Shown here: positions 37,252-64,000 of the stretch, one piece after another | Layout: the number at the start of each line of letters is the position of its first letter | How positions within the stretch are numbered: position 1 is the stretch's first letter | From: Streblomastix strix | Lineage: Eukaryota | Direction: 5' to 3' | Length of the DNA stretch: 64,000 nucleotides | NCBI GenBank assembly: GCA_008636045.1 | Contig: SNRW01000001.1 | Location: 1 to 64,000, forward strand | The notes under the pieces: generated by a model | Database searches by the model: none | What the model saw: only the letters and a program-made list of their open reading frames with translations | What the model was told of the DNA's origin: nothing | Position numbers and translations under genes: made by a program

Positions 37252-37920
37252 ATATGAGTTTTTTAAAAAACTGTGATAAAGATGTTTTGTTAGAAATCAA
37301 ATAATTTAAACTAACATCCCACTAAAGAGTAGATATTTTATTTTATTTTTCCCTTTCTGAACTATTTAACAAATTGTCGTTTTTGACTATAAGAATTATT
37401 TCATATGTTGTCAGTGATATTTCTAGTAATTTTAAAAGAATTAATAAACTTCTTGAATAATATTTTTTCTTTAGATTCTCACTTAATAATATTATATTAA
37501 AAAATCCAAATAAAAAAAAAATTTTCCATTCTACTGAGAAAAGGAAATTATAAAATCTCTATGAAAAAACTAAGATTATAAAAGTATAAATATAAAATAA
37601 CTGTTAAACCAATAAAATATTTAATTTAATTCGTTGATCTTTCATTAACCTTTAATGATTCTTATAGAATTGGTTTAATTTCACGCCCTCGTGTGTATCT
37701 TATTCATTTTCTTTGTTGCAACTTCTATACCAGCTCTTCTTTATAAATAATTTCTTATGTCAATCTTTATCTTTTTATAATATGACTTAATGAAAGTTTT
37801 CACTCTTTAATCAATTTTTTTTACTCCTAATCTTAATTCTAAGTATTTGAGATATCTATTGAATCTTTCTCCATATCTCTTAGATATTGAGTATATGAGT
37901 ACCTATTATAATCGTGTATC

Positions 37921-38847
37921 TAAGAAATAGTTAAAAAATAAACAGATTTAATTGAGGCGGGAGTTTAAGGATTAAATTGAACCAATTATTTAAACAGTGA
38001 AATTAAACTAGTGGATGAATTAGTGATATATAAGGCAAATAGAGCGGCATATTTTATTAAAGATGGTCCATTTATCATATATAGCTTTGGAGCAAAATTA
38101 TCACAACTAATTCAAGTGAATTCAGAAACATAATAAACCGTATATAAATTATTCTCGACAACCAATAAAAAAGTACTACCGCCTAATACGAAATATATGC
38201 CTATTCATGTAGAATTGCAAGAGTTTTCCGCTATGTGTTTGTTCAATGATATTTATGATAAATCGTCAGCTGTTTAGGTAGCCGTTAGTGGATAATTAAA
38301 TACGTATGATTGCGAATTTCAGGGAACGTATATCCTTGATAACTATGCGAACAGCTCAAACCCCAATGAATCGGTATCAAATGAAGCAACTTATGATTCA
38401 GTCATCGACGACGTAATAATAGAACATGAAAATTAATTAGGCTAATCACTACAATCACAATGTACGATAACAAATGTATTCAATTAATTTATAATTAATG
38501 ATTTTTTCCCTTCTTCAGTATATAATACGTACTATATCGTTGATGATGGCTCTTGCAGAGTATGCGTATTCAATTTATATTTCGAATCAAAAGGTTTGCA
38601 AAGTAGAACTTAAGAAGTAGGTCTTATTCTTGATTCTGTAGTACCTGCTGATGGTAAAAGTTTGGGTTTTCCTGCAGCAATATATAGGACATAGGGCGGA
38701 AAATAGAATAAATTTTCTGTGAATTATTTTATTGTAAATGTTTAATTTAAAATGCTATTCTTTAAATTATCATAATCATAAAAGTCAATTCCATAAGATT
38801 CAGCTGATGTCTTCTAATATTACACTAGTGAAATGTATTATTTGTGA
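37921..38847 (+). pseudogene. Beta-rich putative fiber/spike protein, copy A
   Basis: About 290 open codons after an in-frame TGA at 37978; aromatic/beta-strand rich; C-terminus (..FKMLFFKL..DSADVFQYYTSEMYYL*) aligns with the ORF ending at 63826. Function is inferred from position and composition only. Confidence 0.45.
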
Positions 38848-38849
38848 AA

Positions 38850-39010
38850 AACATCAACAAAAAGCATTATTTTGGAACATGAAATTGACGTGGGTAGTGA
38901 ATAACTTTTGACTACACCAAGTGCATCGAGCGCATCGAGTCAGAAACTTTCATCGAAAACTGTGGCCAACTGGCCAACTGGCCAATAATTGAGAAAAATA
39001 ATTATAATTT
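38850..39010 (+). repeat. Left arm of imperfect inverted repeat (pairs with ~39860-40030)
   Basis: actacaccaagtgcatcgagcgcatcgagtcagaaactttcatcgaaaactg (38911-38962) is the near reverse complement of cagttcttgatgaaagtttttgactagatgcactcgatgcactcggtgcagt (39919-39970); weaker similarity extends on both sides. Confidence 0.85.
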
Positions 39011-39032
39011 CAAACGTGAATGCTTATATTTT

Positions 39033-39812
39033 TCATTGGTTCTATAATTATATTCTTCGACTCTGTATATCAATTGGTAATTTTTATCTTAAATATTATT
39101 CGTTTCTTAATATATCAAAATCTTATCTAAATTAACCATTTTTATCTGTACCATAACTATAATCAAGAAATGAACTAGCAACATCTAACCTTTTACCTAT
39201 TATTTAGCCGACAGGACCGAAAGCTGCAAGTATTGGTTTAGCAAATGGTTTTATTAACGATTTATAAACGTTATCATTAGCCCATTATAGACCTTTCCTT
39301 AATTTTTAAACAAATTACAGTCATTATCGGTTAATTCAAATATCGGTTAATTCACAGTAGATTTAATTCGCAGTATTTGAACTAAATGACTTATATTTTA
39401 AAAGTTTTTGCTTAAGTTTTATCACTTAATTCGCAGTAACAAAGTATGTAATTCACAGTAAATTTTAATCAAATCCTTATAAATTCTAATTAATTAAAAT
39501 TTAAAAAAAATTTATGATAAATTTACATACAAATTGCATAAATTGAATATTTTATTTCTTTCAATAAGACTAAAACCAATAAAAATATGTCAAAGAAATT
39601 CTAAAAATTTATTTTTTAAAAAAAAATTTAATTATTTTTATTTATATAATTATTTTATTATTGAATTTCTCTAATTTATATAAAAATTTTAGTAGTTTTA
39701 TGTATAAAATCAGCGAATTATCTATAATTCACAGTTCCATTTTTTGATAAATCGTTTTTTGAATTAACCGATAATGACTGTATTTGATTTTATTAAAGAT
39801 GCCAATCGCTAT
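39033..39812 (-). pseudogene. Small amphipathic Gly/Ala-rich virion protein (lytic-peptide-like), copy A, interrupted by a MITE
   Basis: Removing 39318-39780 plus one TA restores the frame: IAIGIFNKIKQFVQKLRKGLQWANDNVYKSLIKPFAKPILAAFGPVGQIIGKRLDVASSFLD...QFRQDF...YLRQKLPIDIQSRRIQL; aligns with 63464-63793; start codon is ATA. Confidence 0.75.
39318..39780. mobile_element. 463-bp non-autonomous MITE of the Tc1/mariner-pogo type
   Basis: Perfect 23-bp TIR CAGTCATTATCGGTTAATTCAAA; TA on both flanks (39316-17, 39781-82); repeated internal TAATTC(A/G)CAG motifs; excision restores the interrupted ORF. Confidence 0.92.
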
Positions 39813-39859
39813 AAGTTTATTAATAATAAAAATAAAATTTTATATGTATTATTTTAGAT

Positions 39860-40030
39860 TTGAATATATGATTTTATTTTTAATATTTCTCACTTCTGGC
39901 AGAATGACAGGCTGATAGCAGTTCTTGATGAAAGTTTTTGACTAGATGCACTCGATGCACTCGGTGCAGTAAATAGTCATCCATTAACGAAGCCATTTAT
40001 GCGTACCATTTTCAATAAATTTATTGATGT
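39860..40030 (-). repeat. Right arm of imperfect inverted repeat (pairs with ~38850-39010)
   Basis: See left arm; contains the 9-bp array gatgcactc-gatgcactc-ggtgcagt. Confidence 0.85.
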
Positions 40031-40138
40031 GTTATGACTCGGTGCTTCAGCCGCAGGCGGAGTCTTCGACATAATCAAAGTATTTATGTTTAATTAAGTA
40101 TTTAATTAATTATTTTGTTTATTAATTGAATGTAAAAG

Positions 40139-41840
40139 ATGAATAGATTCTTAATGAAAGCCACACATTTACAACAAGCGGGGACCATTGAAGAAACATT
40201 GTCAGATAATGCTATTGTTCTAATCACTAATGACGGAGAACATCATTATTCTATCAAAGAAATTAAACCAGTCCAGCGTTATTTGATAAGGAAATTATTA
40301 TAAGTTTATCAGACGCAGACCAAAATATCACATGGATATAAAATTTGTTCTTGTCGGTAGTGCTAACTGCTAATATCCAACTTGATGATAAATTTGATAA
40401 AATTGACGTATCATATAAAGACGGATTGGTTCTATTTGTAGGTTTCAAATCAAGTTCAAATCTTATTAGAGAATACACAATCTATCATAGAAGTAAAACC
40501 ATTGATGGAAGTCTATAGTATGACGCAACAACTGAATCATTCATTTATAACACTATCAAGCCAAAAAGTGAGAAAAATAATAGAAAACATATATATTTTT
40601 TGCATGAGAATAATCAATAATTTGATATTTCAGCGTGTGAAACATATATAAGTATGCGAAAAATTGGAGAGCTAACAGGAAATCAAACAGCGGTTCCACA
40701 TACAATTCCAATACGTTTCAAAGTCAATGTTCCACTTGATGACTTCTTGATATTCTCTACATTTACTGATTATCTTAATAGCGTATTTCGTTATTTAAAA
40801 ATAAAATTCAATATAAATCCTCATGCATTCGTTTTCAGTCAAATGTATTCAATTATTTCAATCGCTAAATATTATATTATGAATAATGATGAGTTATTGG
40901 ATAATAGTTAGTAGAAGTTAAAGGATATTGGTTTGATGTTCAGAAATTGGAGTCCGATATTCTAATTTACTAAATAATTTACGTAATTGGGATCCACTGC
41001 TGATTTAATAGCAGGACTACATACGGAACCACTAACTGAATCAGGATTGAAGAACTTAGTACGCGACGTAAGACCCGTTACTACGCACATAAAAAATTGT
41101 GTCATTATCAAGGTAACGGCTAATATGGCAAGTTATAAAGCTACTGATGCATGTCTCAATCGAGTCCGATAATTCTACAGTTAACGTCCATTTGTCGTAC
41201 CTGCGGAAAAAGTAGAAAATGGCCATCTCCAACATCTTCTACACTAACGGGAATACGAACATCTTAAAATATTCTTCTGTTTCATGTGACGGATTTCTGT
41301 CTTCTATTTCCATAGGATGTTAGAGCTACAACTTGCTTTGAAAATCCTTGCTATCAGAACATGTAAGTAACCACCTGTAGTAATAACTTTCCAGATATGC
41401 CTATGAATACTCTTGACCAATAATTCTTCTAATTACAAATAAAGGCGAGCAATTTAGACCTTTCAATCGAAGCCACTGAAGAATTTGAAGATGCTTTAAC
41501 TACGCCAAGAAATACAGCTACTCGAAGACTTAATCCTCATACTGAATTAATAAACTTTTTGATAACTCTTTAATATGAAAGAAACAGCAATGGAGCATTA
41601 ACTTTCGATGGACTAGACACTCAGAACTAAAACACATCTATCGATCTCAGAGGAGTACCAATATATCAAGGAGCAACAAATTCATACTACAATGTTGATA
41701 CCAGGGGAAAGAGACCATCATCTCCGATTTTATGAACAGTTCATGATACATTTTGGTTGTTTTCAATCTCTGCAGGTGAAAGCTGCATATATGATACTAA
41801 CCATTCATTTGATGAAATTATAAAACCGTTAAGTTCTTGA
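40139..41840 (+). pseudogene. Major capsid protein (putative double jelly-roll), copy A
   Basis: ~565 codons with frameshifts (~40.27 and ~41.22 kb) and an in-frame TGA near 41.73 kb; FVGFKSSSNLIREYTIYH, VPLDDFLIFSTF, LKIKFNINP, FPDMPMNT, LTFDGLDT; collinear with 61688-63410. Capsid assignment rests on size, beta-rich pattern, context and recalled resemblance to protist Maverick capsids. Confidence 0.7.
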
Positions 41841-41981
41841 AAAGTTAATTCATTTATTTTTATACATTTTTATTTTTTTAATATATACATAATAAACACC
41901 TAAACATTAATATTGTTAATTAAATCAGTCATTAGTTATACATATATATATAAATATTATTTTTTATTCATTTTATAATAA

Positions 41982-42377
41982 ATGGCTTCAAATATGACTT
42001 CAGTTTAAAATATAACGTTTTACATTTGAACATAAAATGACGGAGTTGTTATTGCTTAGAACGATTAGAATGGAGTTAGTTTTGCATTACTATACGCGTT
42101 TGTAAATTCAGATAATTAAAGAAAAATTGTATTCTGCTAATGCCATTGCTTAAACTAAGGCATTAGCGAGGACATTTCTGTTCATAGTTCAGTGGTTCAA
42201 GAAGAGTAGTATTTCGATAAGTTTGTTGGCTATTGTAATGAATAACGTGTTTATAAGCCATATTTCTAATACAACCACAACAGATATTTATACATATGGT
42301 TCCGTTAAAACTAAGAATTATTGGATATTAATTAATAATAATTAAAATTTGTTCTTGGTTTGAAGCTGGAATACTGA
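41982..42377 (+). pseudogene. Small minor capsid (penton-like) protein, copy A
   Basis: ~131 codons with one in-frame TGA (42027); FVNSDNQRKIVF, SVHSSVVQEEQYFDKFVGYCNE, IWFR, KFVLGLKLEY*; homologous to 61266-61658. Confidence 0.55.
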
Positions 42378-42668
42378 TAAAAATTATTTTTTTTAAGGGC
42401 TTAATTTAGTCCCATGATTGATACGAATATTTTTGTTCAAATCGTCAGGCCTCGCTACCTCCAAAAAAATGGATGTAGGTTATTACTAGTACATTTTTGT
42501 TTAAATAGGGGGTCAGCTCAATTTGAGCCAACTAAAATTAAGATAAAAATACTCGTGATTTTGAGTCGGCTTCCAAAAAAAAGGCGGACCAATTAATGCT
42601 CAAACAAATATTATTTCAAAATTAATCGTTTTAATTTATATAAATTCAACTTTTTATCAGTATATAAA

Positions 42669-43510
42669 ATAAAAGCAGAAATAGCAACAACATAATAAAT
42701 TACTTCAAACAATGAAACTTTCATTAGTGGTTCTTATCTAATGTTCGAAATAATAATTCGTAATAAGGATGGATATGTAAATTCTACAAAAGTAGTTTAA
42801 TAAATCAATGAAAAAGAGAATTTTAATAAGAAACTTAAAATATAATATGATAATCAATGTGTAAAGAGCATAAAGAGTTTTAATGAATTAATGTGCATGC
42901 TAGAAAACCAGCCAGCCCATTCTTGAGAATCAATTAGTTAATAAATATTTAAATAATGTTAGAGGAACATATATTTATAAAGATTTAATAAACATAATAT
43001 GTATGAAAACATCAATAAAATCTTTATATCTTACCAATTAGATAATCAATGTATATAATTCGAATTCTAAGCTCAAGAAGATTAGACATCCATGGCTTAT
43101 TTTACAGAAGAAAACGTTTAATTAGTTATAGAAGAATTAAAAGTAGTAATAAATTAAAAAGATAATGATTTAAAACAATTGAAACCAAGAGCTGTTCAAT
43201 AAGCCAAAGAAACTGCATATGTTCTAGCCGTTTAACATATAGAGGTCGATGATTAAAATAATATAATATTAAAAGTTCGAATAAGTGATATGAAATGGAT
43301 TTGCCGTAAATTGATGCAAGATTTAAAAGATGCATTGTCGTACTATGATTAAGAATATATTGCATTGACCAAAAATGAAGCTATCAAAAAAATATTTAAA
43401 TAAAAATATGGAAAGAATTTAATTTAAAGGAATCATATATATATTCAATGAAGATTTAACAGATTATGTCATAAATAAAATTTAAGAATATATAAATACA
43501 TAATTTGTAC
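42669..43510 (+). pseudogene. KilA-N domain protein, copy A
   Basis: IIIRNKDGYVNSTKVV and VRGTYIYKDLINII (KilA-N signature segments); disrupted downstream; homologous to 60300-61191. Confidence 0.75.
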
Positions 43511-43553
43511 TAAAATTATGAACAATAATTTAATTTATTTTTGCTGAAATTAA

Positions 43554-43910
43554 ATGGAAAGAATATTATTTGACAAAAAAAATCAATATATTTTCATCGA
43601 AATTATAAATAGAAACGGATGAATAAGAAGAAATACCTCTCGAGGAGGGGTCCAAGGATCGACTAACGGAGCCAAATATTTTGAGACCTTAAATGATTTC
43701 AAATAATTTATTTCCTAAAATTAATAATAATTATTTAAACTAACAACGTAAAAATTAAATAAATTATATAATTTAGAAGGCTATAAACTATCAAAAATAG
43801 AAGGTCAAATATGCATAAGAACTTGTGCTAAATACTAATTAAGTAAGATTGAGTATAAATTAGACTAGTTTTTGGATGTTCTGAGTCATTTAGTCGATGT
43901 GCTGAAATGA
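43554..43910 (+). pseudogene. Small conserved viral hypothetical protein (ORF-X), copy A
   Basis: MERILFD...KLNKLYNLEGYKLSKIEGQICIR aligns with MYRVLFD...RLNKLYKVEGYIFTRQNEQIALK at 59871-60275. Confidence 0.55.
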
Positions 43911-43914
43911 ATGA

Positions 43915-44990
43915 CTTTTTTCGATGCTTTCATATATAGTATCTTTCTCTGTTTCCCTTTTGCTTTCTTTATCATGAACGCTGTGTTATATACTTTAATC
44001 TATTCTTTTCAAATTGATATCTCAAAATTCTCCATCAATTCCTCTTCTAATATTATCTAATATTCCTTCGCTTCATCTTCTGTACCTGTGAATATCGTTA
44101 TCTTAGTTGTTGGTCTAATCTGCTGATGTTTTATTAATTTTTCAGTTAGAGGAGGAATCCATATTTGACAAAATCTTTCATTTTAATTATTTTCCATTGT
44201 CATGAACACCAAGCTGCTTGAACCCCATTCTTGTTTGGTGTTTATTCATTACCATTGTCGGTTTCACCATTCTCAAGATATCCTCCCTATATTCTTTCTT
44301 CCTGCTCTTTATAACAAGTCCAACTGTTCCTGCTAATCTGTCTCTGAGTCAATCACTATTACAATCTGATAATTGGGTGCGTGTATCGGTTTTTTGTTTG
44401 TTTGATTTTGAATTGATCTTGTTGCCTTTTAGGAGTTTGGGGGACATATCTTCAGTAACTGGGGCTACATCTGCCTTTTTTCTCCGATTCTACTGAGGTG
44501 TGAAGTGGTTAAGAGTGTCGGAGTTGGCTCTAGCTTCGGGACTCCCTAAGGACTTATTGGGTACGGACTTTAGTTAATCTGTTTTGCTTCTAGTATCATG
44601 GTCATTGGTTGGTTGCATCCTTTGTTTGGGTACTACAACTTTCCCTTTAACTTAACCTAATTCTGAAGGTGTGGTGATTAGAGAAGGTTGGCCTTTGGGT
44701 TGTGAAGTGTTTGGATTTCTTAATTCTTATTTGGAATGAGTTGTATGAGATAATCCTATTTCTCCTGTATTATTATTTACACTATCTTGTTGATGTTGGA
44801 TTTCGTTGTTGGATCATTATTTGTTTTTGTTTCTTTCAATTTATGTATCATTTACTTGCTAGTTATTTTTTAAATCTCTAGTGCTATTGATTAATTGGTG
44901 GTTTAAGTTTCCATTTTCGTTTGTTGCTGCCTGTAACTGAGTCCGGCAACCGTTTTCTACAAGTTCATCAGTGGTGAGAGAAAAAGAAGC
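43915..44990 (-). mobile_element. Truncated, degenerate DIRS-like/Ty3-related retrotransposon fragment (low-complexity upstream region plus start of reverse transcriptase)
   Basis: WKIIKMKDFVKYGFLLQ, then FTGTEDEAKEYQIILEEELMENFEISI*KEQIKVYNTAFMIKKAKGKQRKILYMKASKK, which matches the RT N-terminal pattern (..F.IKK..GKWR.ILD...LN). It breaks off before the catalytic motifs; GC content is higher than the flanks. Confidence 0.65.
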
Positions 44991-45000
44991 CGGCCCTTAC

Positions 45001-45833
45001 ATGACAAATGCATCTCAGTTATTCGGTCCTGAAAACCATATGGTATTAATATCGATATGAGTAGTAAATGAAAAAGGATGATGCCCTCACATTGATAAAC
45101 GCAGTGATTTGCCCACATCAGAAATACCCAGTGATATTACGAATTGCTGACATATGAAAAACGAATAGATTATCCAGAACCGAAAATCGAGGAATAAATT
45201 TGATGTTAATAAAGAAATACGGATAAAATAATAAACAATAACATTTATGAATATCATTAGTAATGAAAAATAATTGATATGATTTATGATATACATTTAC
45301 GATAAAAAATAATTGATATGTTTTATGATATGCGTTAATAAAAATTAATAATTGATTTGATTTCCGAACCTCACAAACGAATAGGATTTAAGCAATATTT
45401 CGGGCACCATCCTTTTTCATTAACTACTTATAGCCCAAATCAATGATTTGACCGATGCGTACTAACTTATATTGATTATTTGACTATGTTCGATTAAGTT
45501 TTCATTGATGAAATTGGGATAATGGTACCGAGTAACTGGTCGACGGATGAAATACATTATTTGATGAAATTGATGGTGATGAACAGTTTCAGAATTGATT
45601 AAAATGGTTGTTTTTGGAATGTACGAGTAGGATATGACCTTAGGATAGCCTGTGAGAGTTATATGAAAAATTAGGTTTTTAATCAGAATTTTGACCTATT
45701 ATAAATTTATTTTACTATTATTAAATAGACTGAAAAATCATGGAAAAATTTAAGTTTTTTGAATGACCTGAGAATCAATGTAATAGTTAATGTTGATACG
45801 CTGATCACAAATATAATGTTTAAAATGAGTTGA
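45001..45833 (+). pseudogene. Degenerate hypothetical ORF containing a ~39-bp tandem duplication
   Basis: Coding-like frame with several TGA stops and a frameshift; duplicated aaaaataattgatatg.tttatgatat at ~45266-45345. Confidence 0.3.
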
Positions 45834-45999: not shown

Positions 46000-46350
46000 A
46001 TAATTATCCATGTGGGACAGTTTTGGGATGGGACAAATCCGTGGACTCCTGTGAAAAAATGCTGCCATAATGCCATTCATGCCATAAATTTGAATCATGG
46101 ATAAATAATGTGAATTGACCATGTCAGCTTCGCTGGCTTTTGCAAAAGCAAAGTGCACCGAGTCAACCGAGTGCACCGAATCATAAGTTGACAGGTTGGA
46201 TTCCCGCCATATATTAGACATAATGCCATAAATTTGAATCATGAAGGAATGATATGAATTGTCCGTGTGTCCTGAGTGTCCTGAATGTCCTGAGTGTCCT
46301 GAGTCACAAGCTGAACAGCTCGGATTCCCGCCATTAACCATAATGTCATT
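46000..46350 (+). repeat. Three tandem diverged copies of a bipartite repeat (9-bp array plus GCCAT triplet) upstream of the primase-helicase gene
   Basis: gtgcaccga-gtcaaccga-gtgcaccga (46152) and gtgtcctga x4 (46267), each followed by ggattcccgccat..cataatg(c/t)cat; tgccataaatttgaatcatg occurs at ~46080 and ~46224. Confidence 0.85.
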
Positions 46351-46405
46351 AATTAAATAAAAATTATTTTTCTTAAACTATTTGAACTTTTTATCCATAA
46401 GCAAA

Positions 46406-49146
46406 ATGACATCAGAAGAATCCACAAGCGTCGAAACAATCTCAAATCAATCCATAAACGTTAAACATATTACATTAGAGAAACGTTCAAAAAGATAATA
46501 TAATCGTAAATCGAAAACGGATAATAAAGCTAAAGAATTAATGGACAAATTACTAGAGGAATAAGAATTAGTGAGAATCAAACGTGAATGAGATGAATTT
46601 GATGCGTAAAAGAAAGAGGTTGAAGAATAATAATCTACGAGACATTTAATTGAAGACATTGATCAGAAATAGCAAAAGGAATAGTAAAAATAAGAATAAT
46701 AGATAGAAATGGATTAGCTTTTAAAAAACCTCATACCAATTGCCGCATAAATGAAGGAAGAAACAGTTAGTAAAACTATCATGGAACGAGTTAAGAATGC
46801 AATGATTAACACAGTAAATTATACTAAAATAGGTTAAAAAGAAGGTGAGAAAAAATAAGTAACAGGTAAGTTAATTGATTTAACTCTAGTTGAAGATGGT
46901 GATTTATGCGTGATTGATTTCGATATTAATAAGAAACTATCAATTGAAGAAACTGATAAAATAAGATAAAACATAATAGATAATATGCTTCCTGCTAATG
47001 TAAGTCTTGTTAAGACTGCACATGGAGGATTGCATGCTTATTGTAATAGAGATGGACACACCTTACCTTCGAATAGATGTATGAAATGTATTGTATTAGA
47101 TAATATTGAGATTGATATATTTGGATAGATGTTTAAGTATAAGGAACATGGCAGAATGGAATAAAAGGAACTTGTATAGAATCGAGTAGTTGGTCCAAAC
47201 TCATCATTCCAAGAAACAAAAAATAATAAAAGAGAGACACTTAAATATGAAGCTATTAATGATTGGGCTAATATGACACATTTAGCGAGTCTGAAAGAGA
47301 TCTTAGATAGCTGGAATGTCGATATTGAAATACCGTTCAAAGAATACATAGAAAAGGTAAACATGAGAGAATTTGGTTGGCAAATCACAGAAAAAGGAAC
47401 TATTGATAAGATGAATGATGAAATTGCATAAGCATGTGTTAATGGATTGAGGAATCTTGAAATGCATAACTATCCTTAACCAATCAATATGGAAGTATCA
47501 ATATTAAGTGTATTTTCAGGAATTTATGGAATCACTAATGAGAAGATTAGAGCTGAAGGAATGAAAAATATACGATAATTCATTAAGCTAACTCCAAACG
47601 CTGAAAAGAACTATGGTGAAGCATCATTTAGTGGAGAACGTAAGCCGAATCCATGGATTCTTACAAAAATCCTAAGACACCATAATAAAGATTACTACGA
47701 ATAGACAATTAAGCCACTATTGAAACAGAATTATGAAGTGAAAAAATAATAGAAAATATCAGATACAGTGTAATAAATTGAGAAGCATGAAATTGACTTG
47801 AAAGATCAATTCACATTAATAGATGTATCTAGCAAAGCATTAAATGGAAAATATGAAAATAAATTAGAGTTAGTTGCATAAGATTTATTGAGAATAATTA
47901 AAGTTATTCCTTGCTAAAATGGATGGTGCTTTATCATTAAAGAATACGATTGTATCGCTGGAAAAAATACTATAAAATATAAATCTAAGACAGCATTATA
48001 TGATTAGTTACGTTCAATCAGATTTTGGTAAGATGGAAAGAAGCATATCACTGCAATCGATGCACTAGAATAATATCATTCATTATTTGAGAAGATTGGT
48101 ATGAAATTCACTAGTAACAATGAAAGTATATTCAGTGTATTCTAAGGATTCAAATATATGCAATTAGATGAAGTGAATTAGATAAAAATAAATCAATTCC
48201 TAGGATTAGTGAAAGATACAATCTCAGCAAATGATGAACGAGTTTATGAATACATATTAAATTGGTTTGCATTCATTGTATTGAATGTTGGAAAGAAAAC
48301 TGAAACAGCTATTATACTTCAAGGATTATAAGGAATAGGTAAGATGTATTCACTAATGTCTTATGCGAATTACTTGCAGGTTATTCTTCAAAGAATATCA
48401 CAGATATAGATGATTTTGTAGGTAAATTCAATATAGCTATCGAGAATAAGATTTTGACAATTGCGAATGAAATGAAGAATTTTGGAGAATCGAGAATGTC
48501 AAACATGGACGCATTGAAATCAATAATTACTGAAAGTTCCTTTGAAATTAATGAGATGTATGTTTCTAAGCATGAAGTTGAGAATGTAGTGAATATAATG
48601 ATTGTTACAAATAATATCTATCCATTAAAGATTGAAAATAGTGATAGACGCTATGTTGTATGCAAATGTCATCCAGTTCATCGTGGAGATTTGAAGTATT
48701 TCACTAACTTGTGCAATAGCTTCGATGATGATTTTTACAATAATTTATTCACATTCTTTATGACTAGAGATATTTCATAATTTAATCCAAGAAACATTCC
48801 AATGATATAAGCTAAGAAAGATATAATAAAAGCATCAATCTCACCAGTAGACGATGTAATAATTAATTATTTTAAATCATTTAGAGATGGAATTACATGC
48901 AATATTGTTGAAGGATGGAAATCATAAGAAATGAAATTAAAGTATTATTAATTTGCGATCAAAAATATATGTGAAAGAGTTAGAAAAACAAGTGGCTGAG
49001 AACGTAAATGGATGTATTAATTGAAAGAAGAAATGATATCAATCAATGAAAGTATGCTAGATGAAGAAACTGATGAGATTGACTCCGTGCTAATGCAACA
49101 AGAGAAAGAATAAGAGATATAGAATGATGGTAATGAATAGATATGA
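46406..49146 (+). pseudogene. Primase-polymerase (AEP/Prim-Pol) fused to D5-like SF3 helicase
   Basis: LCVIDFDINKK (DxD), VKTAHGGLHAYC, Walker A IILQGLQGIGK (frameshift just after, ~48343), LTIANEMKN, IVTNNIYPLKIENSDRRY; premature TGAs at 46589 and ~48998. Confidence 0.88.
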
Positions 49147-49189
49147 AATTATTTTTGCTTGGAATCGTGGAGAATTAATGTGAATGAAC

Positions 49190-49345
49190 TAGTGTCCTGA
49201 GTCGAAGAATTACTATGATTATTGTGTTCTAGAATCATGGGGAATTGATTCAAAATAAAATAGTGTCCTGAGTGACCTGAGTGTCCTGAGTCCGAACTCG
49301 CCATCTTTTTTTCCTGCCATATCAGACATAATGCCATATTGTTCA
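49190..49345 (+). repeat. Left arm of second inverted repeat (pairs with ~49925-50075); also a direct-orientation relative of the 46.2-46.35 kb unit
   Basis: attgtgttctagaatcatggggaattgattcaaaataaaatagtgtcctgagtgacctgagt is the near reverse complement of actcaggacactcaggacactagtctattttgaatcaattctccatgattctagaacacaat. Confidence 0.9.
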
Positions 49346-50678: not shown

Positions 50679-50697
50679 TTCATTTTAAGAAAAATTC

Positions 50698-53211: not shown

Positions 53212-56200
53212 TCATTTAATAAAAAATCTATCAGCTTTAATTCCATATATGAACGGCAAGCATGATTGTTTATGTAATACTATCATTTTCGTCATCGACC
53301 CAGTTATTGCATTTCTACTCATCTGAAGTCGCGACATAATGCCATTCCTCTATGCTAGTGTTGTGTTTACCGCAGTTGTTACTGTTCCATTATTAATGCA
53401 ATCCACAAACTTTTGTTCATTAATCTATGGGTTTTGATTCAAAATAATACCCTTCAAAACTATCTCATTATTAATAATATAATTTTTAGGTGATAGAGCT
53501 ATATAATTCAATCCATATTTTTCGATTCCTATATTTAATATCTATTTTTATCCGTTATCAGTATACACACAATCCTTATAAGTGTCAAAGAACCCCTAGT
53601 CCTTGATGACTTCTTCAAATAGTTGATCTGGACCTCTATTTTGATTGCCACTAATTGCACATGTCAAACTATCTGTATTATATTAAACGAAGTGCATCCT
53701 ACTCATGTCGTACGCTTTATACATAAAATTATATATGAAATTAACGTAGCAAAATTTTGCAGAATCAAGTACGAAGTAAGCAACTTATAAACATGTATTG
53801 CAACGACAGTTTTTCCTATCCACTTATACAGCGTATAGATCTTCATTTAATTCGGTCGAATGAATGAATCCACCCAACATATGTTATATGAATGTTTTAT
53901 TTGCAGAGAGTAATCTTGTATTAGAATACTTTTCACTATTCAACGCATCGCCTCCAAATGCTGAATTTAATATCAACTTACAGAATTATCTTAGTCCTTC
54001 ATTTTTAGCATCTTTCGCTTACTATCGAAGATTCATAAATTACTTTACAAATAAATTGAAATTAGTGTGTTTCATAAATGTTGTAACACTAACTATATCA
54101 TCTATTATGAAATGACATGTATCCATTAGTATCCATAAATAATAATTGTTGAATGACATTACTTCATTATTTGTATCTACTAAATTTGTTAATTTTCGTT
54201 CTGTTTTAACATGCGGAAGTTAGTGATCGACTAGATGATTATATATAAAACTCTCCAATTGTCTCTTTATTAGTTGTGATTTCAATATTTCTTAGAATTG
54301 GACCCCAATTAATCACTACATTAATATATCTTTCATCAGTGTGACCTCTAACTTCAGCAACAAATAATAACATTTTATCGACTACTAATGGATCATTAGA
54401 GAACCTACTAGTGTCATATATTAGTGTTTTACATCGATTTTGATCAGTAATCTTTTCAATAAGTTATGCAGGCATATATATTATATGATTTGTGTATGGA
54501 TTTAAGGCATTCGGTTCACTGCTCATAACACTAGGATATTAGCTATGAAAATCTAACTAAACTACATGAGTCATCACATTATCTGAATATATTGAATACA
54601 TACATTTATTTTTTTAATCAAATTCGAAATGATTAATTCTAGGTTCTCCTGCAATATTATATCTATGCATCACATTTGATATACCTCCAGTGATTCCTTT
54701 ACGCAATAATTGATATCCTTCATCACTCGTTAATGTCATGGGTAATTATTTAAATAACGCATATTTCTTTAACTATACCATTTGTTTCATCTAGTTTTCA
54801 TCACGAATAGCTTTACATACATTGCAGTACAAACAGCATGGAAGTACGTTATCTTTTGAGTGTCCTTTACTATTATCTATTCTATCTAATGTGGGCCTAT
54901 TTTTCCATGTGAATCGTGCATCAAATATGTGGCATCGTTAATTCTTGAATATTTCTTTAAAATAATCATAATCATCAATTGTTACATTATTGCTTGAATT
55001 TCTATTCATTTTATTATCTTATTCAATATAGCTTTCCACTTTTGCTCTCCAATAATTCTATGTGATATCGATCAATTTGTCAGTTGATTCATAATTGTAA
55101 TTACCTTTTATATCAAAATCACTATAACATATAGCATATTTGATCGCATTAGCGCATTGTGACATAGATATATTAGGTAGCATATCAACCTTGTATTTGA
55201 ACATTAACTCAATCAAGTAATCTATAGGTTCAATAAGAACTCTAGTATCTAATATATTGTAGTGCTTCAAGTAATCCCATCATGTTTTGTGCTTTGCTGC
55301 TTCGACTAGGTACTCTTTGTACTTTACTTCATTAAGTTTCTTATTTCGTAATTTATTATCAAATGTTTCGATCGGAAATGGTTCAATTTTATTCAGTTCA
55401 TTCATGTAATTATTAGTGTTTATGAATTCATGAGGAAATCTACCATTTTTATAAGTCCCATTTCCAAAATCTCTTACAGCATCCTTTAATTTATTTTACA
55501 TAGAATAGATCTTAAAATCAACGAATCTCAAATGAATGCTTGAAGACTAATGCTTCACAATTATCTATTTTGCGATTGTGCTTGATCCCAAATACTTAGA
55601 GATAGGCCAATTCTTTGATTTCAAATTCTTAAACAACACTGACGCATCAAATTTTGCTTAATTGAACCCAATTACAGGTAATTCAAAATATTATGGGATT
55701 GTTTCATCTATATATTTATTATCTTTCTTAACTTATTTCGCTTCTTCAAATAGCTATTCTAACCACTTATCTAAGAAATCATCTGTTCGAATATCGTAAT
55801 AAAATGAATGGATATCGCTAGCAAATTTGACAGTTGAATCAATAGCGTATGGAATTAGAATTGCAGTAACTTATGAACTATCACCGAATTTTTCATTAAC
55901 TTTATTTTCTAATGTTTCAATATCATATGTTATGTAATATCTTGTAGGCTTGAAAAAATGAGTTAGATTGTTCGCTAATAGATACTTATAAGTCTTGTTA
56001 GATAAAATATGAGGAACAAACGGTTTTGCAAACTTCTCTAAGATGACTTTCTTAACTATTTTTCCATCATTCTTTTGACATTTTTTCATATGATTTCTCA
56101 TCTGTACTTATAGATTTTTATCATTTATTCTGAATGCTTACCTATGGCATATATTACAGTAACGAAATCCAGTTAATGCTTCTACATCAGATATATACAT

Positions 56201-57715
56201 AATGTGAGCATTAATTCCATCATTAATGAATAAGATATTGAAGTGCTTATCCAAATCATTAGCAGTATAATTTTATGTTAATTCATAATGTTGTGGATTG
56301 TCTTCAAACGTATGCATGTGCACGTTAACCTGTTCTTTTTTAATGAAGTTATCAATATCTCCTACGAAATCGAATCCTTAATAATTATCTTGAAACCCCA
56401 CTCCATTTACTCTTGAAAATATACGCTTAGCTTCTGCGATTCTAGAACAATCCATCCAACGTTTATCCTTTGAATTAGGCATTGTGATGAATGAATACGC
56501 TGTCCAGAAACATAGATTCACCTTATAATCTACATAATAAATCTCTTTTCGTTTAATATGCTACTTTAATGATGGAATAGCCGCACCTGCTAATGGATAT
56601 CGAAAAATAAAGAGCATTATTTAGAATATTGATACTATTTTTTCATGAGTATCTGTGTTAGTTCTCTCTTACATGGTTCCTATAACTGTTCGAAGATACT
56701 ACTTGTACATATTAATGTTATCTCTAGATCGTATTTCTAATGGAGCTCTTCTTTCTGAACTTGCATCTACTAGAAATATATATTTGTATTTAATTGTTTA
56801 ATCTTCATTATTACCATTAACACTTTCAATTAACACACCAAAATCAACAGCTAGTTTAAACACATTACCTTTTTCTTTATCATATACGGAGTCCAAGTAT
56901 TTATCTAAATCGGCTAATGAAGCAATATTACTATAGTATTATTTTGTTGGTTTGATTTAATTAGTTGATGATAAATTATACGATTTGTATGAAAGAGTGC
57001 CTGTTTCTTTATTGTATCGATTTAATGCAATATTCTTAATCCTACTGAATTTCGCTTCATTCTATATGTCACATAGCATAATCACATCATTATCCGTATT
57101 TAGATGATGATACACATATTATTCATGAGTTCTAATGTAATCGCTAATTTCTTATTAGTCTGTTTCGAATAGTATATCGATGTTCATATCCTCCACATTA
57201 TGAAATTCATCTAACAATGATGCTTATCTTGCTTATCTATCTTCATCTTATTTTCTCCTACGTTCTTCTATCTTTTATGCTCTTAATTAATGCTGCTATT
57301 ATTTATATCGTTCTAGATCGAAAATATCATCTTCATCTAATTGTTCTGGATCGAACTCTTCTCGTAATTCTTTTATGTCTAATTCACGTTATTTTTATAA
57401 TTATTCTTATTCCTTTTATATCTATTCTTCTCGTATTAACCGTTATTATTCCCGTTAATTGAACCATTTTCGAACACGATTTTATATAACAGTTGCTGCT
57501 TTGGATTGTTCCATATATATATTACGTGAAACTACTGCATTGATCGCTTATTCCACAGCATTAACGTTATTACGTTAACCATAGAATCCGATCTTTGTCA
57601 GTATAGAACTTAGCGCTGATCTCTTCATATTATTACTCGCATTTATGTCTGTATTTGGATCGTATAATTAGAGTAATCGATTAACGTCTGCAATTGATAT
57701 CTTTATTCAAGTCAT
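53212..57715 (-). pseudogene. Protein-primed family B DNA polymerase (~1500 aa) with long N-terminal extension
   Basis: Exo I YITYDIET, Exo II VIGFNQAKFD, KNGRFPHEF, YLKHYNILDT; LRKGITGG; motif A SLDFHSQYPSVM; motif B KLILNSAFG; motif C QYNTDS; ALSPKNY, LKG. TGA at codon 3 and a +1 frameshift near 54245. Confidence 0.92.
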
Positions 57716-57744
57716 TTCGTTGATTCAAAAATAAATTGTCATAT

Positions 57745-58663
57745 GATTGATTATTTTCAATCCTATTACATCGCTCCTTATCTTCTTCCAGCTTCATTTA
57801 TGGCTGCAGGTGCAACTTAATTATATATACGATCAATTTCGGTTGCAAATGCTTCTTCATCAGTGTTAGTTTATGTAAAATATGCCTATGCAATTTATTT
57901 CTTAAATGCAATTGCACCTTATTTTATATATCATTATTTTCCCAATTTTATTGTGGATCAATTATCTATAAGATTTCTCTTACAACTTCTCTCCATGTAG
58001 CTTATGCAGCAGTAACATACTAGCCTCCCCCCCATTTTTCTATTTCATTTGTTTTTCTAAATTCTTAAGCAATTGTAGGAATGTAAGTAGCCAAGAAATG
58101 ATTTCTTGGAACTAATTATTAGAATTATTTCATTTTATAAGAGCCATTTTTATGTTATGCTCCAACTGGAACTTCCTTACCTTACATAAAATTGAAGAAT
58201 TTATTATTGTTACGTTATCTTTTGGTACACCAGCTATATATTATTCTCGATATTTATCATATTTACTTTCATCTTTTGGAATGTATCCTCCGATTGAATA
58301 TAACTTTCCTTTATTGGTATGAACAGTTGCGAATTCAGGTAATGGACCTTATCCATCTGGATCAACCATCCGCATAGTATATCCTTGCATGCCTTTTTTA
58401 CCAGAAATATATGCTTCACCTGAAGGAATAGTTCTCAATTCTTAATTATATTTCATATCTTTATGCAGGTTTTGTTTATTATTTAGTATACCAATTAATG
58501 CTTATAGTTATTTTGCATTTATTCCTGTTGTATGTTTAATACGACTTTCAGCAAGCTTCTATTTTCTAACATTTTTCTTGTTTAGTTATTCTTCGGATAA
58601 TGGAGTTTATTTTTTCAGCAAATATTACGCGAATCTTGAAAGTTACGGTTATGCTTCAGCCAT
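57745..58663 (-). pseudogene. Hypothetical viral protein (~300 aa), frameshifted
   Basis: MAEAQPQLSRFAQYLLKK...MVDPDGQGPLPEFATVHTNKGKLYSIGGYIPK; coding-like sequence continues in shifted frames. Confidence 0.4.
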
Positions 58664-58669
58664 GTTTTG

Positions 58670-59045
58670 GTTTTGAGTAAAAGTTGGTTATCGTATTTAT
58701 TCTATTGCATATTCTCTTTATTAATCTATTGGTTACTCTTGTGGTTACTTTTATATGTTCCTAAACTGATTATTCAATTATTGATCTAATAGTTTATGGC
58801 GCTTCCGCTATAGTTCTTTATTCAATTTAATCAGCTAAATTCCAATATTTTTCTTAAATTCATCGAAATGCTTATGCTGTTTCGTTCAATATAGTTAATT
58901 ATTCTTATTATCTTTAACGACCTTTATGTTTATGCTAATTGTATATTTGTTCTTCTGCATTACGTAATTCATTAAAGAATTCATCATTATCGCTTGCAAT
59001 TTACCGAATATCTCTAATTTCATTGTTTAACTCTTCTGCACTCAC
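58670..59045 (-). pseudogene. Degenerate small coiled-coil ORF
   Basis: SAEELNNEIRDIRQIASDNDEFFNELRNAEEQIY... with an in-frame TGA and no ATG start. Confidence 0.3.
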
Positions 59046-59096: not shown

Positions 59097-59870
59097 ATGT
59101 CTTTAACTAGTTACGTGAATCAATTACTTAGTAAACAGAAAACTAATAAACATGAAGTATAATCTATGATTCATAAAGAGCTCAATTTCTCATATAATTC
59201 TATCAATCTTCTTATAGGATAGCGAGGAAACGGTAGTTCATATAACATATTCAAAGAGCTAATCAAATTGAGTTGGTTACCTAATTAGTGTTACACGTTA
59301 TTCATATATGTTATTGATAGCAATAATGATATCACATATATGATGATGAAAGATTTAATAACTATTTCAACAAAAATAGTACCATATTCAGAAGTGAATG
59401 AAACATTAGATGAACTGATTGAATGTAAGAAAGCGTATGATGAACTAAATGAATATAAGTTAGAGAAATAAATGAAAGAAGAATCTAAAATAGCTATATT
59501 ATCTCACATTGGAGCAAAGGATTTTTCTATCAAATTTCCACATACAATAGTGTTGTTCGATGATGCAATGAGTATATTCAAAAATAAGAACAATCCACTA
59601 TACAAGAAGTTATTCAAAAATAGATAGCCAAGAATTACTTATTTCCTATGTTTGCAAGATATTATTGGGTTAGATGCTAGCATTAAATCAAACGTTGATA
59701 CTGTATATTTTTTTGGCGGATTCAATAGATAAAAATTCAATTTATTCTTCTATCAATCATCGCTACTGTTGGATAAAGAAACATTATGGAATGAATATGT
59801 GTAATTAGGTAAATGAGAAGCATTATTGGTATAATATAGTAATGATATAATTATTGTACGAGTTATTTGA
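59097..59870 (+). pseudogene. A32/FtsK-like genome-packaging ATPase
   Basis: Walker A-like LLIGQRGNGSS (Lys lost), Walker B IVLFDDA, KNRQPRITYFLCLQ and IKSNVD motifs typical of A32 ATPases; 258 codons with an in-frame TGA at 59814. Confidence 0.85.
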
Positions 59871-60275
59871 TCAATGAACGTATTCATCATTTTAGTAGGA
59901 AATTGATTGTTATTTTTATTCAAAGAAGCTTAGTAAAAACATTAATTTACCATTGATTTCTTTGATCGATTCTTATATGTTAGTTAATTCATTTTATTCC
60001 GATTATTTATGTTTGGATTATTTTAATGCTATTTATTCATTCTAACGTGTGAAGATATATCCTTCAACTTTATATAATTTATTTAATCTAATAGATGGCA
60101 TCTTATCTATTGTTTCTTTGTTAGCTGCGTAATATTAATGGAATTCGTCAGTCGAATCAAACGTTAATGGTTATGCATCAGTTTTATTGATAATTTTTAG
60201 TTCAGATAATGCTTAGATTTTATCCTTAGATTTATTGTTCTTAATTAGCTTACTATCAAACAACACACGATACAT
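59871..60275 (-). CDS. Small conserved viral hypothetical protein (ORF-X), copy B
   Basis: Open 134-aa frame; its stop abuts the ATPase stop (TGATCA); homologous to 43554-43910. Confidence 0.6.
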
Positions 60276-60299
60276 TTCAATTTAACAAAAATAAATTAG

Positions 60300-61191
60300 C
60301 CGAGCTATCAATGTGCTCTCGATGAATTAATAATAGCTTATTTTGATCAATAATTTAATCTAATTAGTTTTCTTAGAATGTGTAATGAGTCAACCATATT
60401 TTCACGTCTTATCTTTATTATAAAACTTCTTTAATCTTTTCATTAATTGTCATAGCAATTGGTAAGTTATCAATAAATAATAATGATTCACGAAGATATC
60501 GTTCTTTTTTTGCGGGACATAGATTTTTTCTATTAATTCTTCTAACTCGTATTGTTATTTGATCTTCATGTTAGTCTTCATGTTATTAATCTTCACTAAC
60601 CTCTTCAACTATCAAGATATATATTTTTTCTTTACCATTTGGAACAGCTCTTGGAGCTAATTATCGAACTTATTAATTCAAATCAGTTATTCTATCCGAT
60701 AATGTATCAGTAACTTCATTAATAACGTTATGGAATTGATCTGCGATTGCCTATGTTTTATCAGCATCATGTTCTGCAATAGTTGTTTCGTTAATTTTGT
60801 CCATAATATCAGTTACAATATCAAGATATTTGATAGATGTCTTCATTCAAATTATGCTAATTAATTTTTTATATATATATGTTCCTCTGACTTCTTTAAT
60901 ATATTCATTAATCAACTAATATTCAAGTTAGGGGGGCTGGTCCTTTTTGGACGCAGCCGATTTGTCTTGGATAAATTTCTTATATTCCCTATACATCTAA
61001 GTTACCATTATTTTCTTCAATTATTTGTTAGTATTCTCTTACTCATTAATCAATTGAACTAGTTTGGTAGCGTTAACATAACCATCAATATCTCTTATCA
61101 ATATTTCGAAACCATTATAAGATCCAATTGTAAAGCTCTCGTTGTTCGAAGTTATTTTGCACAATTCGGGTGTTGCTGTTTCTGTAGTCAT
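60300..61191 (-). pseudogene. KilA-N domain protein, copy B
   Basis: ILIRDIDGYVNATKLV, VRGTYIYKKLI; one TGA where copy A has Cys; C-terminal LAPRAVPNGKE. 3' end approximate. Confidence 0.8.
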
Positions 61192-61265
61192 TTCTGATTA
61201 GTAAAAGAGTTTGGTTAGTAAATTGAAACTAATGATTATTAGTTAATATACAAAAATAATCTCAA

Positions 61266-61658
61266 TCAATATACAAGCATTAAATCAAGTACGAATTTTA
61301 TATCTGTTTATTTTACATTCTAATTCATATTATTCTTGAACCAAATCAACATACTTCGTTAATGATTCATTTATTAAAATTCATTAATTGTTCTAATTTC
61401 ATTACAAAAACCTACAAAACTATCGTAATATTATTCTTATTATACTAACGATGAGTGAATGGATACAATATCTGGAGTATTAAGTATCTTGTATTACAAG
61501 AATATTATTTTTCGCTCATTGTTTGAATTAACAAAATCAAAGGGTAGCTGAACTCGATATTTCCCTTCATCATATATGCAATCATCCTACATTATCATAA
61601 AGTGTTTTACATTCTGAGCTGAAGTCCTATCATTAATTATCGCACGATTATAAGCCAT
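61266..61658 (-). CDS. Small minor capsid (penton-like) protein, copy B
   Basis: Open 130-aa beta-rich frame: LPFDFVNSNNERKIIF, SIHSSLVQQEQYYDSFVGFCNE, IWFKN, KFVLDLMLVY*; directly downstream of the MCP gene. Confidence 0.6.
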
Positions 61659-61687
61659 TTTATTACAGAAATAATATTCCATCAGTA

Positions 61688-63410
61688 TCAAGCAGTTACT
61701 AATCCAATAACCTAATTAAATGAATGAGTTGTATCATATATGCAAGATCTTCCATCTCTAGGACTGAATAGCCAGAAATTATCGTGAACTGTGCACAAAA
61801 TTGGAGGAGGTGGATGTTTTCCATTAGTATCAACATTATAGTAGGTATCAATTGCACCTTAGTATAGTGGTTATCCTCTTAGTTCAATTGAAGCATTTTA
61901 GTTCTGGGTGTCTAATCCATCAAATGTTAATGCATTATTGCTATTACGTTCACATTAAAGAATGATGAAAAATGATGTATAATCAGTTACAGAATTATAT
62001 TTTCTAGTTGAATTTCCTGTTGGAGTTGTTAATGAATCTTCATATTCATCTGTAGCTTCGAATATATTATCGAGATTATTTGCAGTTATCTATATTGTGA
62101 AGAATTATTCATTAAGTGTATTCATGGGAAAATCTGGGAAATTTCTACTTAAAGTAGACAATTACATATTTTAATAACATGAATTTTCGAAGCAAGTAGT
62201 TTGTCTAGCGTCCTTAGGAAATAGTAAGCACATATCAGTAACGTGAGATAGCGGTATATTTTATAAAGCACATAATCCAGTAAGAGTAGCACCACTTGGA
62301 AATGCCCATGTTTCAATACATTATGCAGGTACGATAAATGGACACGATGAATAAAATTATCGTACACGATTAAGACATTCTTGTGAAGCTTTATATACAC
62401 ACATATTTGCAACAGCTGCAGTAATGATATAGTTTCTTAAAGAAATTGTTACTGGTTTGATATCATATACAAGATTCTTCAACCCTGATGGAGTTAGTTC
62501 TTCAGCACGTACTCCAGTAATCAAATCAGCAGTGCATCCAATTTATGTGAACATATTTGTGTATTAGAATGTGAGAGACCAATTACGGAAAAATAGATCA
62601 ATATCCCTAAGCTTATCTTGACCTGAGCTCAATAATTCATCTTTATTAATTGTATAATATCTAGTCATCGAAACTACTGGATCAATTTGGTAGAATATGA
62701 ATGCGTTTGGATTAATTTTGAATTTAATTTTAATATCACCAAACAGACTATTAGGATATTCAGAGAATGCTGAGAAAATGAGTAAATCATCAAGAGGAAT
62801 TGAAACAGAGAAATTAACTGGCATAACATATGGTGCAGCAGTTTGTGGAGCAAGTGCATCTGAAATATCCTTGATTCTAAGATATTTTCCACAATGTGAT
62901 ACATCATCTTTACGTACATTTTCATAGAGTAAATGAACTATTCTATTATTATTTTTCTCTGATTTGGGTTTAATAGTATTATAGATAAATTATTCGGTGG
63001 TAGAATCATTCTGAAGAGATCCATCGATTGTCTTTCCTCGATGATATAGAGTATATTCGCGAATTAGTTATGCAGATGATTTTAGTCCAACAAATATAAA
63101 TGTTCCAGCTCTATAAGATTCGCTAAATTAATCAAATTTATTATCGAACAATAGATTCATTGTAAAATCAAGAGTAATGAATGAATTTTATATCTATGTT
63201 ACGTCATGATCTGGATCGGTCAAACTGATAATAACTTCCTTGTCAAATAATGATGGCATTTATGATTCTGGCCTGATCTCTTTGATTGAAAAATGGTGTT
63301 GTCTATCATTCTAAAATGGTAGAATTGCGAAGGTCTTTAACAAATTCTCGATTGTTTCCAGATTTTGTTGTGTTGTTAGGCACACGTGTCTTCATAAGTT
63401 GGCGATTCAT
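61688..63410 (-). pseudogene. Major capsid protein (putative double jelly-roll), copy B
   Basis: ~573 codons, open apart from a 1-nt frameshift near 63380; FVGLKSSAQLIREYTLYHRG, IPLDDLLIFSAFSEYPNSLFGDIKIKFKINP, FPDFPMNT, LTFDGLDT, PPPILCTVHD. Confidence 0.75.
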
Positions 63411-63463
63411 GTTTAATTCTGTAAAATAAATCTGATTATATAATAGTTAATACGAATAGTGAT

Positions 63464-63793
63464 TCACTGAAATTCATTTCCAAGTAGTTATATCCGTTTA
63501 CTAATTACATCAATTGGAACATTTTTCCTTAAGTAATTGTCTTATTGGAATGTCTTAAAATCCTATCTGAATTGTTATTTTGATTATTATTTATTAGGTC
63601 CAAATAAAGCATCTACGGCTGATGATCCTACACTAATTCCTTTCGCTACCATACTTCCTGCTGGTCCCAAAGATGATAGAAGTGCATTAATTATGGGCAT
63701 TATTGGCTTGACTATTTTATCATTCATCCAATAGACTCCTTTACCAACAACTGAGATTAATTTTTTAAGCTTGCTGAGTATTCCCGGCGCCAT
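63464..63793 (-). CDS. Small amphipathic Gly/Ala-rich virion protein (lytic-peptide-like), copy B
   Basis: Intact 109 aa: MAPGILSKLKKLISVVGKGVYWMNDKIVKPIMPIINALLSSLGPAGSMVAKGISVGSSAVDALFG...QFRQDF...YLRKNVPIDVISKRIQL. Confidence 0.7.
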
Positions 63794-63825
63794 GATTTTA
63801 AACCGCAAAAATAAACGTAATCGCA

Positions 63826-64000
63826 TCAAATTATCAAATCATTGTCTAATAAGTGGTACATTCCACTAGCGCAATATTTATAAATATCAGTTGATGATTC
63901 AAGAATAACTTCTTGAACATTTTGCAAAAAGCAATATAACATTTTATAATATTAATTGAATCCGAAATAACACATATCTAACCAATTTATATATCCACCA
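63826..64000 (-). CDS. 3' end of putative fiber/spike gene, copy B (begins beyond the window)
   Basis: GGYINWLDMCYFGFNQYYKMLYCFLQNVQEVILESSTDIYKYCASGMYHL aligns with the C-terminus of 37921-38847. Confidence 0.5.

Follow-up and report, generated by a model that had tools for sequence, protein, structure and literature searches.

The window analysed here is a 64,000-nucleotide stretch of Streblomastix strix DNA (GenBank assembly GCA_008636045.1, contig SNRW01000001.1, positions 1 to 64,000 of the forward strand), in which a cluster of virus-like genes follows 37.8 kb of host sequence. Very probably, the region from 37.9 to 64 kb consists of two broken, oppositely oriented copies, together with a helicase block, from a Maverick/Polinton-like virus family of high copy number, written with TAA and TAG as glutamine (Gln) and standing beside host genes of a termite-gut oxymonad. 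An earlier note, made from the letters alone, had proposed an endogenous Maverick/Polinton-like virus in a host with this code, which is supported by homologues, codon tests, the host junction, the capsid tree and selection. The region is not a single intact virus: it holds the helicase block and two partial copies, inverted to each other and belonging to two subfamilies. Called frames cover 79% of the region, with the following features.

37909-38847, plus strand: 3' part of the copy A penton candidate, 5'-truncated, at the left border with host DNA
38883-39998: inverted repeat pair (38883-38962 / 39919-39998) with AGTG-type 9-mers, enclosing an inverted small gene
39036-39320, minus strand: copy A small QFRQDF protein, in-frame start codon absent, inverted relative to its neighbours, 37-38% identical to 63467-63826
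40130-41837, plus strand: copy A major capsid gene (MCP-A), spread over three frames, 56-65% amino acid identity to MCP-B
41976-43820, plus strand: copy A 133-codon gene, KilA-N gene, coiled-coil gene and small gene, each a broken paralogue of a copy B gene
43850-45250, minus strand: non-viral insert, more G+C-rich, no Pfam match
46343-49100, plus strand: Prim-Pol-like N-terminus and superfamily 3 (SF3, D5-like) helicase, with direct AGTG 9-mer arrays on either side (46266-46305, 49262-49292)
49174-50084: inverted repeat pair (49174-49282 / 49975-50084, 80%) with AGTG 9-mers, around a 98-codon frame
50698-51800, minus strand: copy B putative integrase of retroviral type (Pfam rve), broken near its 5' end
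52588-53172, minus strand: copy B stand-alone HNH endonuclease, open frame (HNH_3, E 3e-6; phrog_59, E 2e-15)
53212-57628, minus strand: copy B family B DNA polymerase of the protein-primed type (pPolB) in three pieces
57650-58885, minus strand: copy B gene or genes in several frames, without informative match
59097-59816, plus strand: copy B A32/B204-type genome-packaging ATPase
59871-61682, minus strand: copy B 134-amino-acid gene, 189-amino-acid coiled-coil gene, KilA-N gene (60847-61191, E 7e-10) and 138-amino-acid gene, with paralogues in copy A
61688-63410, minus strand: copy B major capsid gene (MCP-B), 567 open codons, 21 of them TAA or TAG
63464-63826, minus strand: copy B small QFRQDF protein
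63826-64000, minus strand: 3' end of the copy B penton-candidate gene; the element runs past the window

Self-comparison shows the two copies to lie in opposite orientation, with capsid genes that share 68% nucleotide identity. Copy A (37.9-43.8 kb, plus strand) runs from the truncated penton candidate through the inverted QFRQDF gene between inverted repeats, the capsid, the 133-codon gene, KilA-N and the coiled coil to the small gene. Copy B, read from beyond 64 kb down to about 50 kb and mostly on the minus strand, has the penton candidate, QFRQDF, capsid, 138-amino-acid gene, KilA-N, coiled coil, small gene, ATPase (plus strand), a gene without informative match, pPolB, HNH, two small genes and the integrase. 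Between the copies lie the non-viral insert (43.85-45.25 kb) and then the primase/helicase block (46.3-49.1 kb), and the element genes are colinear with their homologues. Copy B continues beyond the window, as P0162, the window's own protein from a 74,190-base contig, matches 63829-63999 at 100%; the inverted pair at 49174-50084 is a possible end of this copy. The left border at about 37.9 kb falls within a gene whose homologues reach about 500 amino acids, with the window protein aligning only from about residue 215, and is therefore a truncation rather than a terminal repeat.

The replication and packaging genes belong largely to the set that the earlier note had named: pPolB, ATPase, SF3 helicase, KilA-N and HNH all have matches, while the integrase stays below the family cut-off, and the pPolB, helicase and integrase genes are broken. 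The polymerase matches PF03175 (DNA_pol_B_2) with E 2e-6 and 27.4 bits, above the cut-off of 25.8, and is arranged as a long N-terminus with a Cys...His pair, a zinc finger, exonuclease motifs, an endonuclease VII/HNH insert (54700-55050, minus strand; phrog_1035, E 3e-11) and palm motifs. Polinton pPolB has been described as TP-vOTU-Exo-Palm, with vOTU's catalytic Cys and His before the exonuclease (parts of PMC11161782). By eye, the N-terminal piece shows Cys and His motifs, at its amino acids 397 and 500, that are placed as in a vOTU, a putative assignment for a piece that has no Pfam match. Such a domain would not replace a capsid maturation protease, because vOTU is proposed to cut the terminal protein. 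The helicase block matches the SF3-type helicase family DUF5906 (E 3e-15) and primase PHROGs (E 5e-12), and its N-terminus is probably a Prim-Pol, judging from motifs seen by eye. A D-D-D spacing (51486, 51306, 51201) was likewise seen by eye in the integrase, for which a phmmer search gave no PDB integrase match. For the ATPase 41 homologues were found, of which 15 carry the name S. strix and 26 do not. Its family profile matches, among PDB entries at E<=0.0022, only STIV-type B204 packaging ATPases (4kfr, E 0.001; 4r2h, E 0.0022).

MCP-B has 176 homologues, and the best 120 of the 176 are all named Streblomastix strix (47-92% identity). It is 62% identical over 559 amino acids to P0017, which by eye is near-identical to S. 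strix EZS28_010462 over the first 400 residues shown in Table S3 of Bellas et al. (2023; PMC10120064, seen in part, as cited throughout). According to that table, EZS28_010462 (562 amino acids) matches the Sputnik capsid 3j26 over residues 28-557 with E 2.6e-12, and the article reports it as confirmed by Foldseek as a virophage-like major capsid. The predicted capsid identity of the window gene rests on this published match of a family member, and its fold is taken from the literature. A wide search gave 537 capsid representatives at E<=0.001. In a FastTree phylogeny of 45 rows (midpoint root, no outgroup), the window groups with 14 S. strix capsids in a single clade (support 1.0) that has distinct subfamilies inside and sits among 30 of the 66 environmental relatives. 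Four capsid comparisons gave a ratio of nonsynonymous to synonymous divergence (dN/dS) of 0.14-0.26; between subfamilies the ratio is 0.14-0.25, at a dS of 1.3-1.9. At the level of sequence comparison, a long residence in the host lineage is supported by this purifying selection at near-saturated dS.

The gene one upstream of the capsid gene is, by its position, a candidate minor capsid or penton gene. It has 102 homologues, of which 101 are named S. strix and one is the window's own, and at least 15 of them, counted by eye, carry a locus tag one or two away from that of a capsid homologue. An AlphaFold2 model from 31 sequences reached a predicted local distance difference test (pLDDT) of 33, unusable for fold. 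A profile match between the penton-candidate alignment A2 and the capsid alignment A4 was discarded, having proved to be an artefact that arose from fused annotations in A2. Gene callers fuse the capsid, QFRQDF and penton-candidate genes in P0004, P0137 and P0145.

Under the standard code, 37.9-64 kb contains five frames of at least 100 amino acids, the longest of 145; under NCBI table 6, in which TAA and TAG (together TAR) are Gln, frames reach 808 amino acids, which upholds the earlier claim that the cluster is readable only in this way. Across 786 aligned codon pairs from six paralogue pairs of the window, with TAR masked during alignment, TAR stands opposite TAR 16 times (2.0 expected) and opposite CAR (CAA or CAG) nine times (1.2 expected). 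TAA and TAG thus occupy Gln positions common to paralogues, as had been noted from QFRQDF, a motif that is present in both copies with 3/4 of its Gln codons TAR. When MCP-B was compared with 66 distant capsid relatives (20-40% identity; 17 of 20 looked up are capsids, and none is named S. strix), the log-odds at TAR sites were +26.7 for Gln and -5.8 for the next best residue. Gln makes up 28.9% of the relatives' residues at the 21 TAR sites vs 24.5% at the 10 CAR sites, and two near-invariant Gln of the distant capsids (64/66, 59/66) are TAA in the window. Across 14 element frames TAR accounts for 233 of 323 Gln codons (0.72); the host share is 0.50-0.70 in three host frames, some intron read-through included. 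Conserved Gln pairs between paralogues are TAR-TAR in 16 of 28 cases, and about half would be expected anyway because TAR stands at 72%. Shared TAR codons therefore show Gln, not age. The long virus-host association that the earlier note had read from them is left to the purifying selection at near-saturated dS, which does speak for it.

The junction with the host is bridged by one unitig. This 846-nucleotide unitig, with a depth of 29, is identical to the window over 37177-38022 and spans the border, with the caveat on the source of the reads given below. G+C is unchanged across the border, and on the host side (1-37.8 kb) frames likewise open only in table 6, among them one with a DEAD-box-type helicase C domain (E 1e-26). 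The sole strong match among sequencing runs is one termite gut metagenome run, with 75% of sampled words; no RNA run is listed among the runs that match the window.

The window copies are decayed. MCP-A has two small deletions relative to the open frame of L001, the single locus found in a metagenome scan (85% nucleotide identity), and in MCP-B a frameshift falls within the first 12 codons or so. Of the 240 columns that S. strix copies conserve, MCP-B departs at 17 (median 6.1%, range 0-20%), and of the 34 capsid columns conserved family-wide it departs at 4. In pPolB a TGA interrupts the frame at about 55280 and the frame shifts near 54.2-54.3 kb, the helicase is frameshifted near 48.3 kb at its Walker A motif, and the integrase frame starts on TGA without a start codon. 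The Walker A lysine of the ATPase is lost in the window, and GKT is found in 24 of 24 relatives covering the motif. The copies are likely dead remnants.

Several results weigh against reading the region as the remains of a Maverick/Polinton-like virus family. Neither terminal repeat nor target duplication was found, the two inverted repeat pairs present (38883-39998, 49174-50084) being internal, and no true element end lies inside the window. The integrase match to Pfam rve (E 7e-4) scores 20.2 bits, below the cut-off of 32.6. Among the table-6 frames scanned against Pfam and PHROG there is no adenain-type protease, as the earlier note had observed for the window; both copies are partial, and a gene for an adenain/Ulp1-type protease is found in 74% of Polintons only (parts of PMC4028283). 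No single jelly-roll penton is proven, the candidate having no PDB, Pfam or PHROG match. The AlphaFold2 model of MCP-B from 46 close sequences has a mean pLDDT of 39, too poor for fold comparison (best Z 3.1), and Foldseek on it (including BFVD) gave no match under E 0.001. Capsid profiles from the close alignment and the deep alignment A4 match no PDB chain, and the Trichomonas capsid family DUF4106 is matched by 0/46 and 0/70 family members. The run that bridges the border may be the source sample of the window's assembly. With reads placed on 30001-39500 only, 22 of 25 host bins have a summed depth of 21-46 and the other three have 75, 141 and 166, against 39,000-162,000 in five element bins, figures that are not copy numbers. 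Finally, stops and frameshifts in high-copy insertions have been described as often assembly artefacts (PMC10120064).

These points feed three other explanations. The first two concern what the genes are. That the region is a capsid-less self-synthesising transposon, its "capsid" gene being something else, would agree with the lack of a jelly roll in the present fold and profile searches and with a 2026 preprint, seen in part, in which metamonad capsids were confirmed by structural modelling alone. It is very improbable given the match of EZS28_010462 to the Sputnik capsid cited above, the packaging-type ATPase that travels with the capsid gene, and the beta-strands that make up the confident parts of the otherwise poor MCP-B model. 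Still less credence, indeed next to none, is due to a virus of the standard code that was inserted, died and then acquired TAA and TAG by neutral C-to-T decay, which would make the code uninformative on adaptation. The window copies are decayed, TAA is one transition away from CAA, and full-length relatives, whose code was not checked, occur in metagenome collections usually gene-called by the standard code. On the other hand, 72% of Gln codons are TAR, yet the proteins are 76-92% identical to their nearest homologues; among 3,578 codons there are still 23 TGG and 28 CGA; and the open capsid frame of L001 has 15 TAR in 390 codons. The dN/dS of 0.14-0.26, with dS of 1.3-1.9 between subfamilies, also weighs against such decay, which therefore cannot produce the TAR pattern. 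A neutral-decay origin of TAR is already refuted by the codon counts.

The third explanation, improbable as well though less so than these two, is one intact and active provirus whose breaks and two-copy mosaic come from short-read assembly of a collapsed repeat family. In its favour are the published artefacts just mentioned, which account for many stops in such insertions (PMC10120064), the pile-up of 2,029 contig records of run X1, whose depth falls almost wholly on the element, and the placing of reads only left of 39.5 kb. However, majority letters would be expected of a false consensus; the window instead carries changes of its own at conserved positions, and its terminal branch is 0.155 vs 0.03-0.07 for its four closest relatives. 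The two capsid genes are only 68% alike and thus too far apart to collapse in assembly, and an identical unitig of single-copy depth runs across the left truncation. Two decayed, inverted copies of an integrated virus family in a TAR = Gln host remain by far the preferred account.

The headline of viruses in a TAR = Gln host is already in print (Bellas et al., 2023; PMC10120064), and the present locus is one more, decayed, locus of known S. strix elements. In that article S. strix viral insertions use table 6, with genes predicted accordingly; a long virus-host association is concluded in a nearly identical statement; and S. strix capsids were found by PSI-BLAST starting from T. vaginalis capsids. 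The S. strix row of its Table S1 reads 820, which we take to mean capsid matches. It is the only paper found that links Streblomastix to Polintons, in a search that excluded subscription literature. In its text passages and supplement text, figures excluded, there is no gene map of any S. strix element. GenBank already contains the element proteins, labelled "hypothetical". What the window adds is the gene order of an S. strix element, two subfamilies at near-saturated synonymous divergence in one host lineage, and codon-level proof of code adoption rather than decay. Also available are 537 capsid-family representatives for a group that a 2026 preprint still failed to place.

Compared with the S. 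strix endogenous viral elements of the Metamonada group (PMC10120064), the window element is alike in capsid family, table-6 code, high copy number and the conclusion of long association, and the passages at hand give no difference in kind; the window has the capsid gene family, the table-6 reading and the integration in a table-6 host genome. The Mavericks of Trichomonas vaginalis (Polinton-1_TV; capsid DUF4106) share with it a metamonad host, massive expansion and the set of pPolB, rve integrase (putative in the window) and ATPase. T. vaginalis is a standard-code host, unlike that of the window. The absence of DUF4106 matches (0/46 and 0/70) makes the link to these Mavericks a distant one. 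The KilA-N association is common to both (parts of PMC10120064 and bioRxiv 10.1101/2024.03.23.586382). The pPolB2 Polintons of oomycetes and terrestrial nematodes have an HNH-type nuclease within pPolB, as does the window, the two inserts being compared by description (bioRxiv 10.1101/2023.08.22.554363). Passages of that preprint find pPolB2 most abundant in Metamonada and describe the HNH insert as peculiar to the pPolB2 of oomycetes and nematodes, with no mention there of Streblomastix. The Polinton literature drawn on, in part, is PMC11161782, PMC4028283, PMC8502044 and bioRxiv 10.1101/2024.03.23.586382. With canonical Polintons (PMC4028283, PMC11161782) the element shares pPolB, a putative rve integrase, packaging ATPase and a predicted capsid, a candidate penton one gene from the capsid, and a Cys/His pair at the place expected for vOTU. 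It differs in the protease, terminal repeats and target duplication not found in these partial copies, in the extra Prim-Pol/SF3 helicase block and in being recoded. Among Polinton hallmarks, the window has pPolB, as a broken gene, and an A32/FtsK-like packaging ATPase that has lost its Walker A lysine.

An intact member of the family would replicate linear DNA through its protein-primed polymerase, integrate through the rve integrase, and form virions in which the A32-type ATPase would package DNA into a double jelly-roll capsid. Its genes would be translated by host ribosomes, under which synonymous CAR-to-TAR drift under A+T pressure would bring viral Gln codons to the host balance while selection kept the proteins. 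Both window copies would then be remnants cut by truncation, inversion and further insertion. More tentatively, and on the doubtful side, a virus lineage carried by Streblomastix may still be active, its code switched on the stem from standard-code gut relatives and now locked to TAR = Gln hosts, with an endonuclease-bearing pPolB, a separate Prim-Pol/SF3 helicase and no adenain protease; the environmental capsid relatives, hundreds in number, would let the Metamonada group be placed and the switch be mapped on its tree. Whether host range depends on the code could be put to the test in a DNA virus clade that has both recoded and apparently standard-code branches.

Some further observations concern single genes and spacers. 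Many full-length ATPase and capsid relatives occur in metagenome collections (P0242, P0249-P0273, P0278-P0418); the ATPase P0259, filed under "Alphaproteobacteria bacterium", probably comes from a viral contig assigned wrongly. Among P0233-P0248, six annotations of the S. strix ATPase begin after Walker A, and several are labelled TraD/TraG-like. A search of IMG/VR viral contigs found no relative, with patterns that were exact or Gln-containing and hence weak. In L001 an MCP-A-type capsid frame is open over 390 codons (1-1230, minus strand), about 0.3 kb from a table-6 frame that by eye resembles a glycoside hydrolase, and similarity to the window stops 57 bases upstream of the capsid start codon. 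The amphipathicity of the QFRQDF proteins is not above that of shuffles (129 and 96 of 500), and a membrane-lytic role is not claimed. Counting intron motifs, in a crude way, gave no separation between host and element. The last 50 codons of the insert at 43850-45250 resemble what we take to be the start of a DIRS/Ngaro-type retrotransposon reverse transcriptase.

The AGTG 9-mers lie at 38920-38940, 39952-39970, 46152-46181, 46266-46305, 49191-49292, 49816 and 49986-50075, confined to element spacers except for one inside the helicase gene and one loose match at 9229, against a comparison of 37 kb of host DNA. They are arranged as two inverted pairs, some 0.7-1 kb apart, and a direct pair that flanks the helicase, and depth is highest in the bin containing the first array; they could be termini, origins or promoters. 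On the host side, a large membrane-protein gene at 25489-31323 (minus strand) carries a TmcB TPR domain (E 2e-10), and the frames at 6652-12369 (minus strand) are by eye similar to it.

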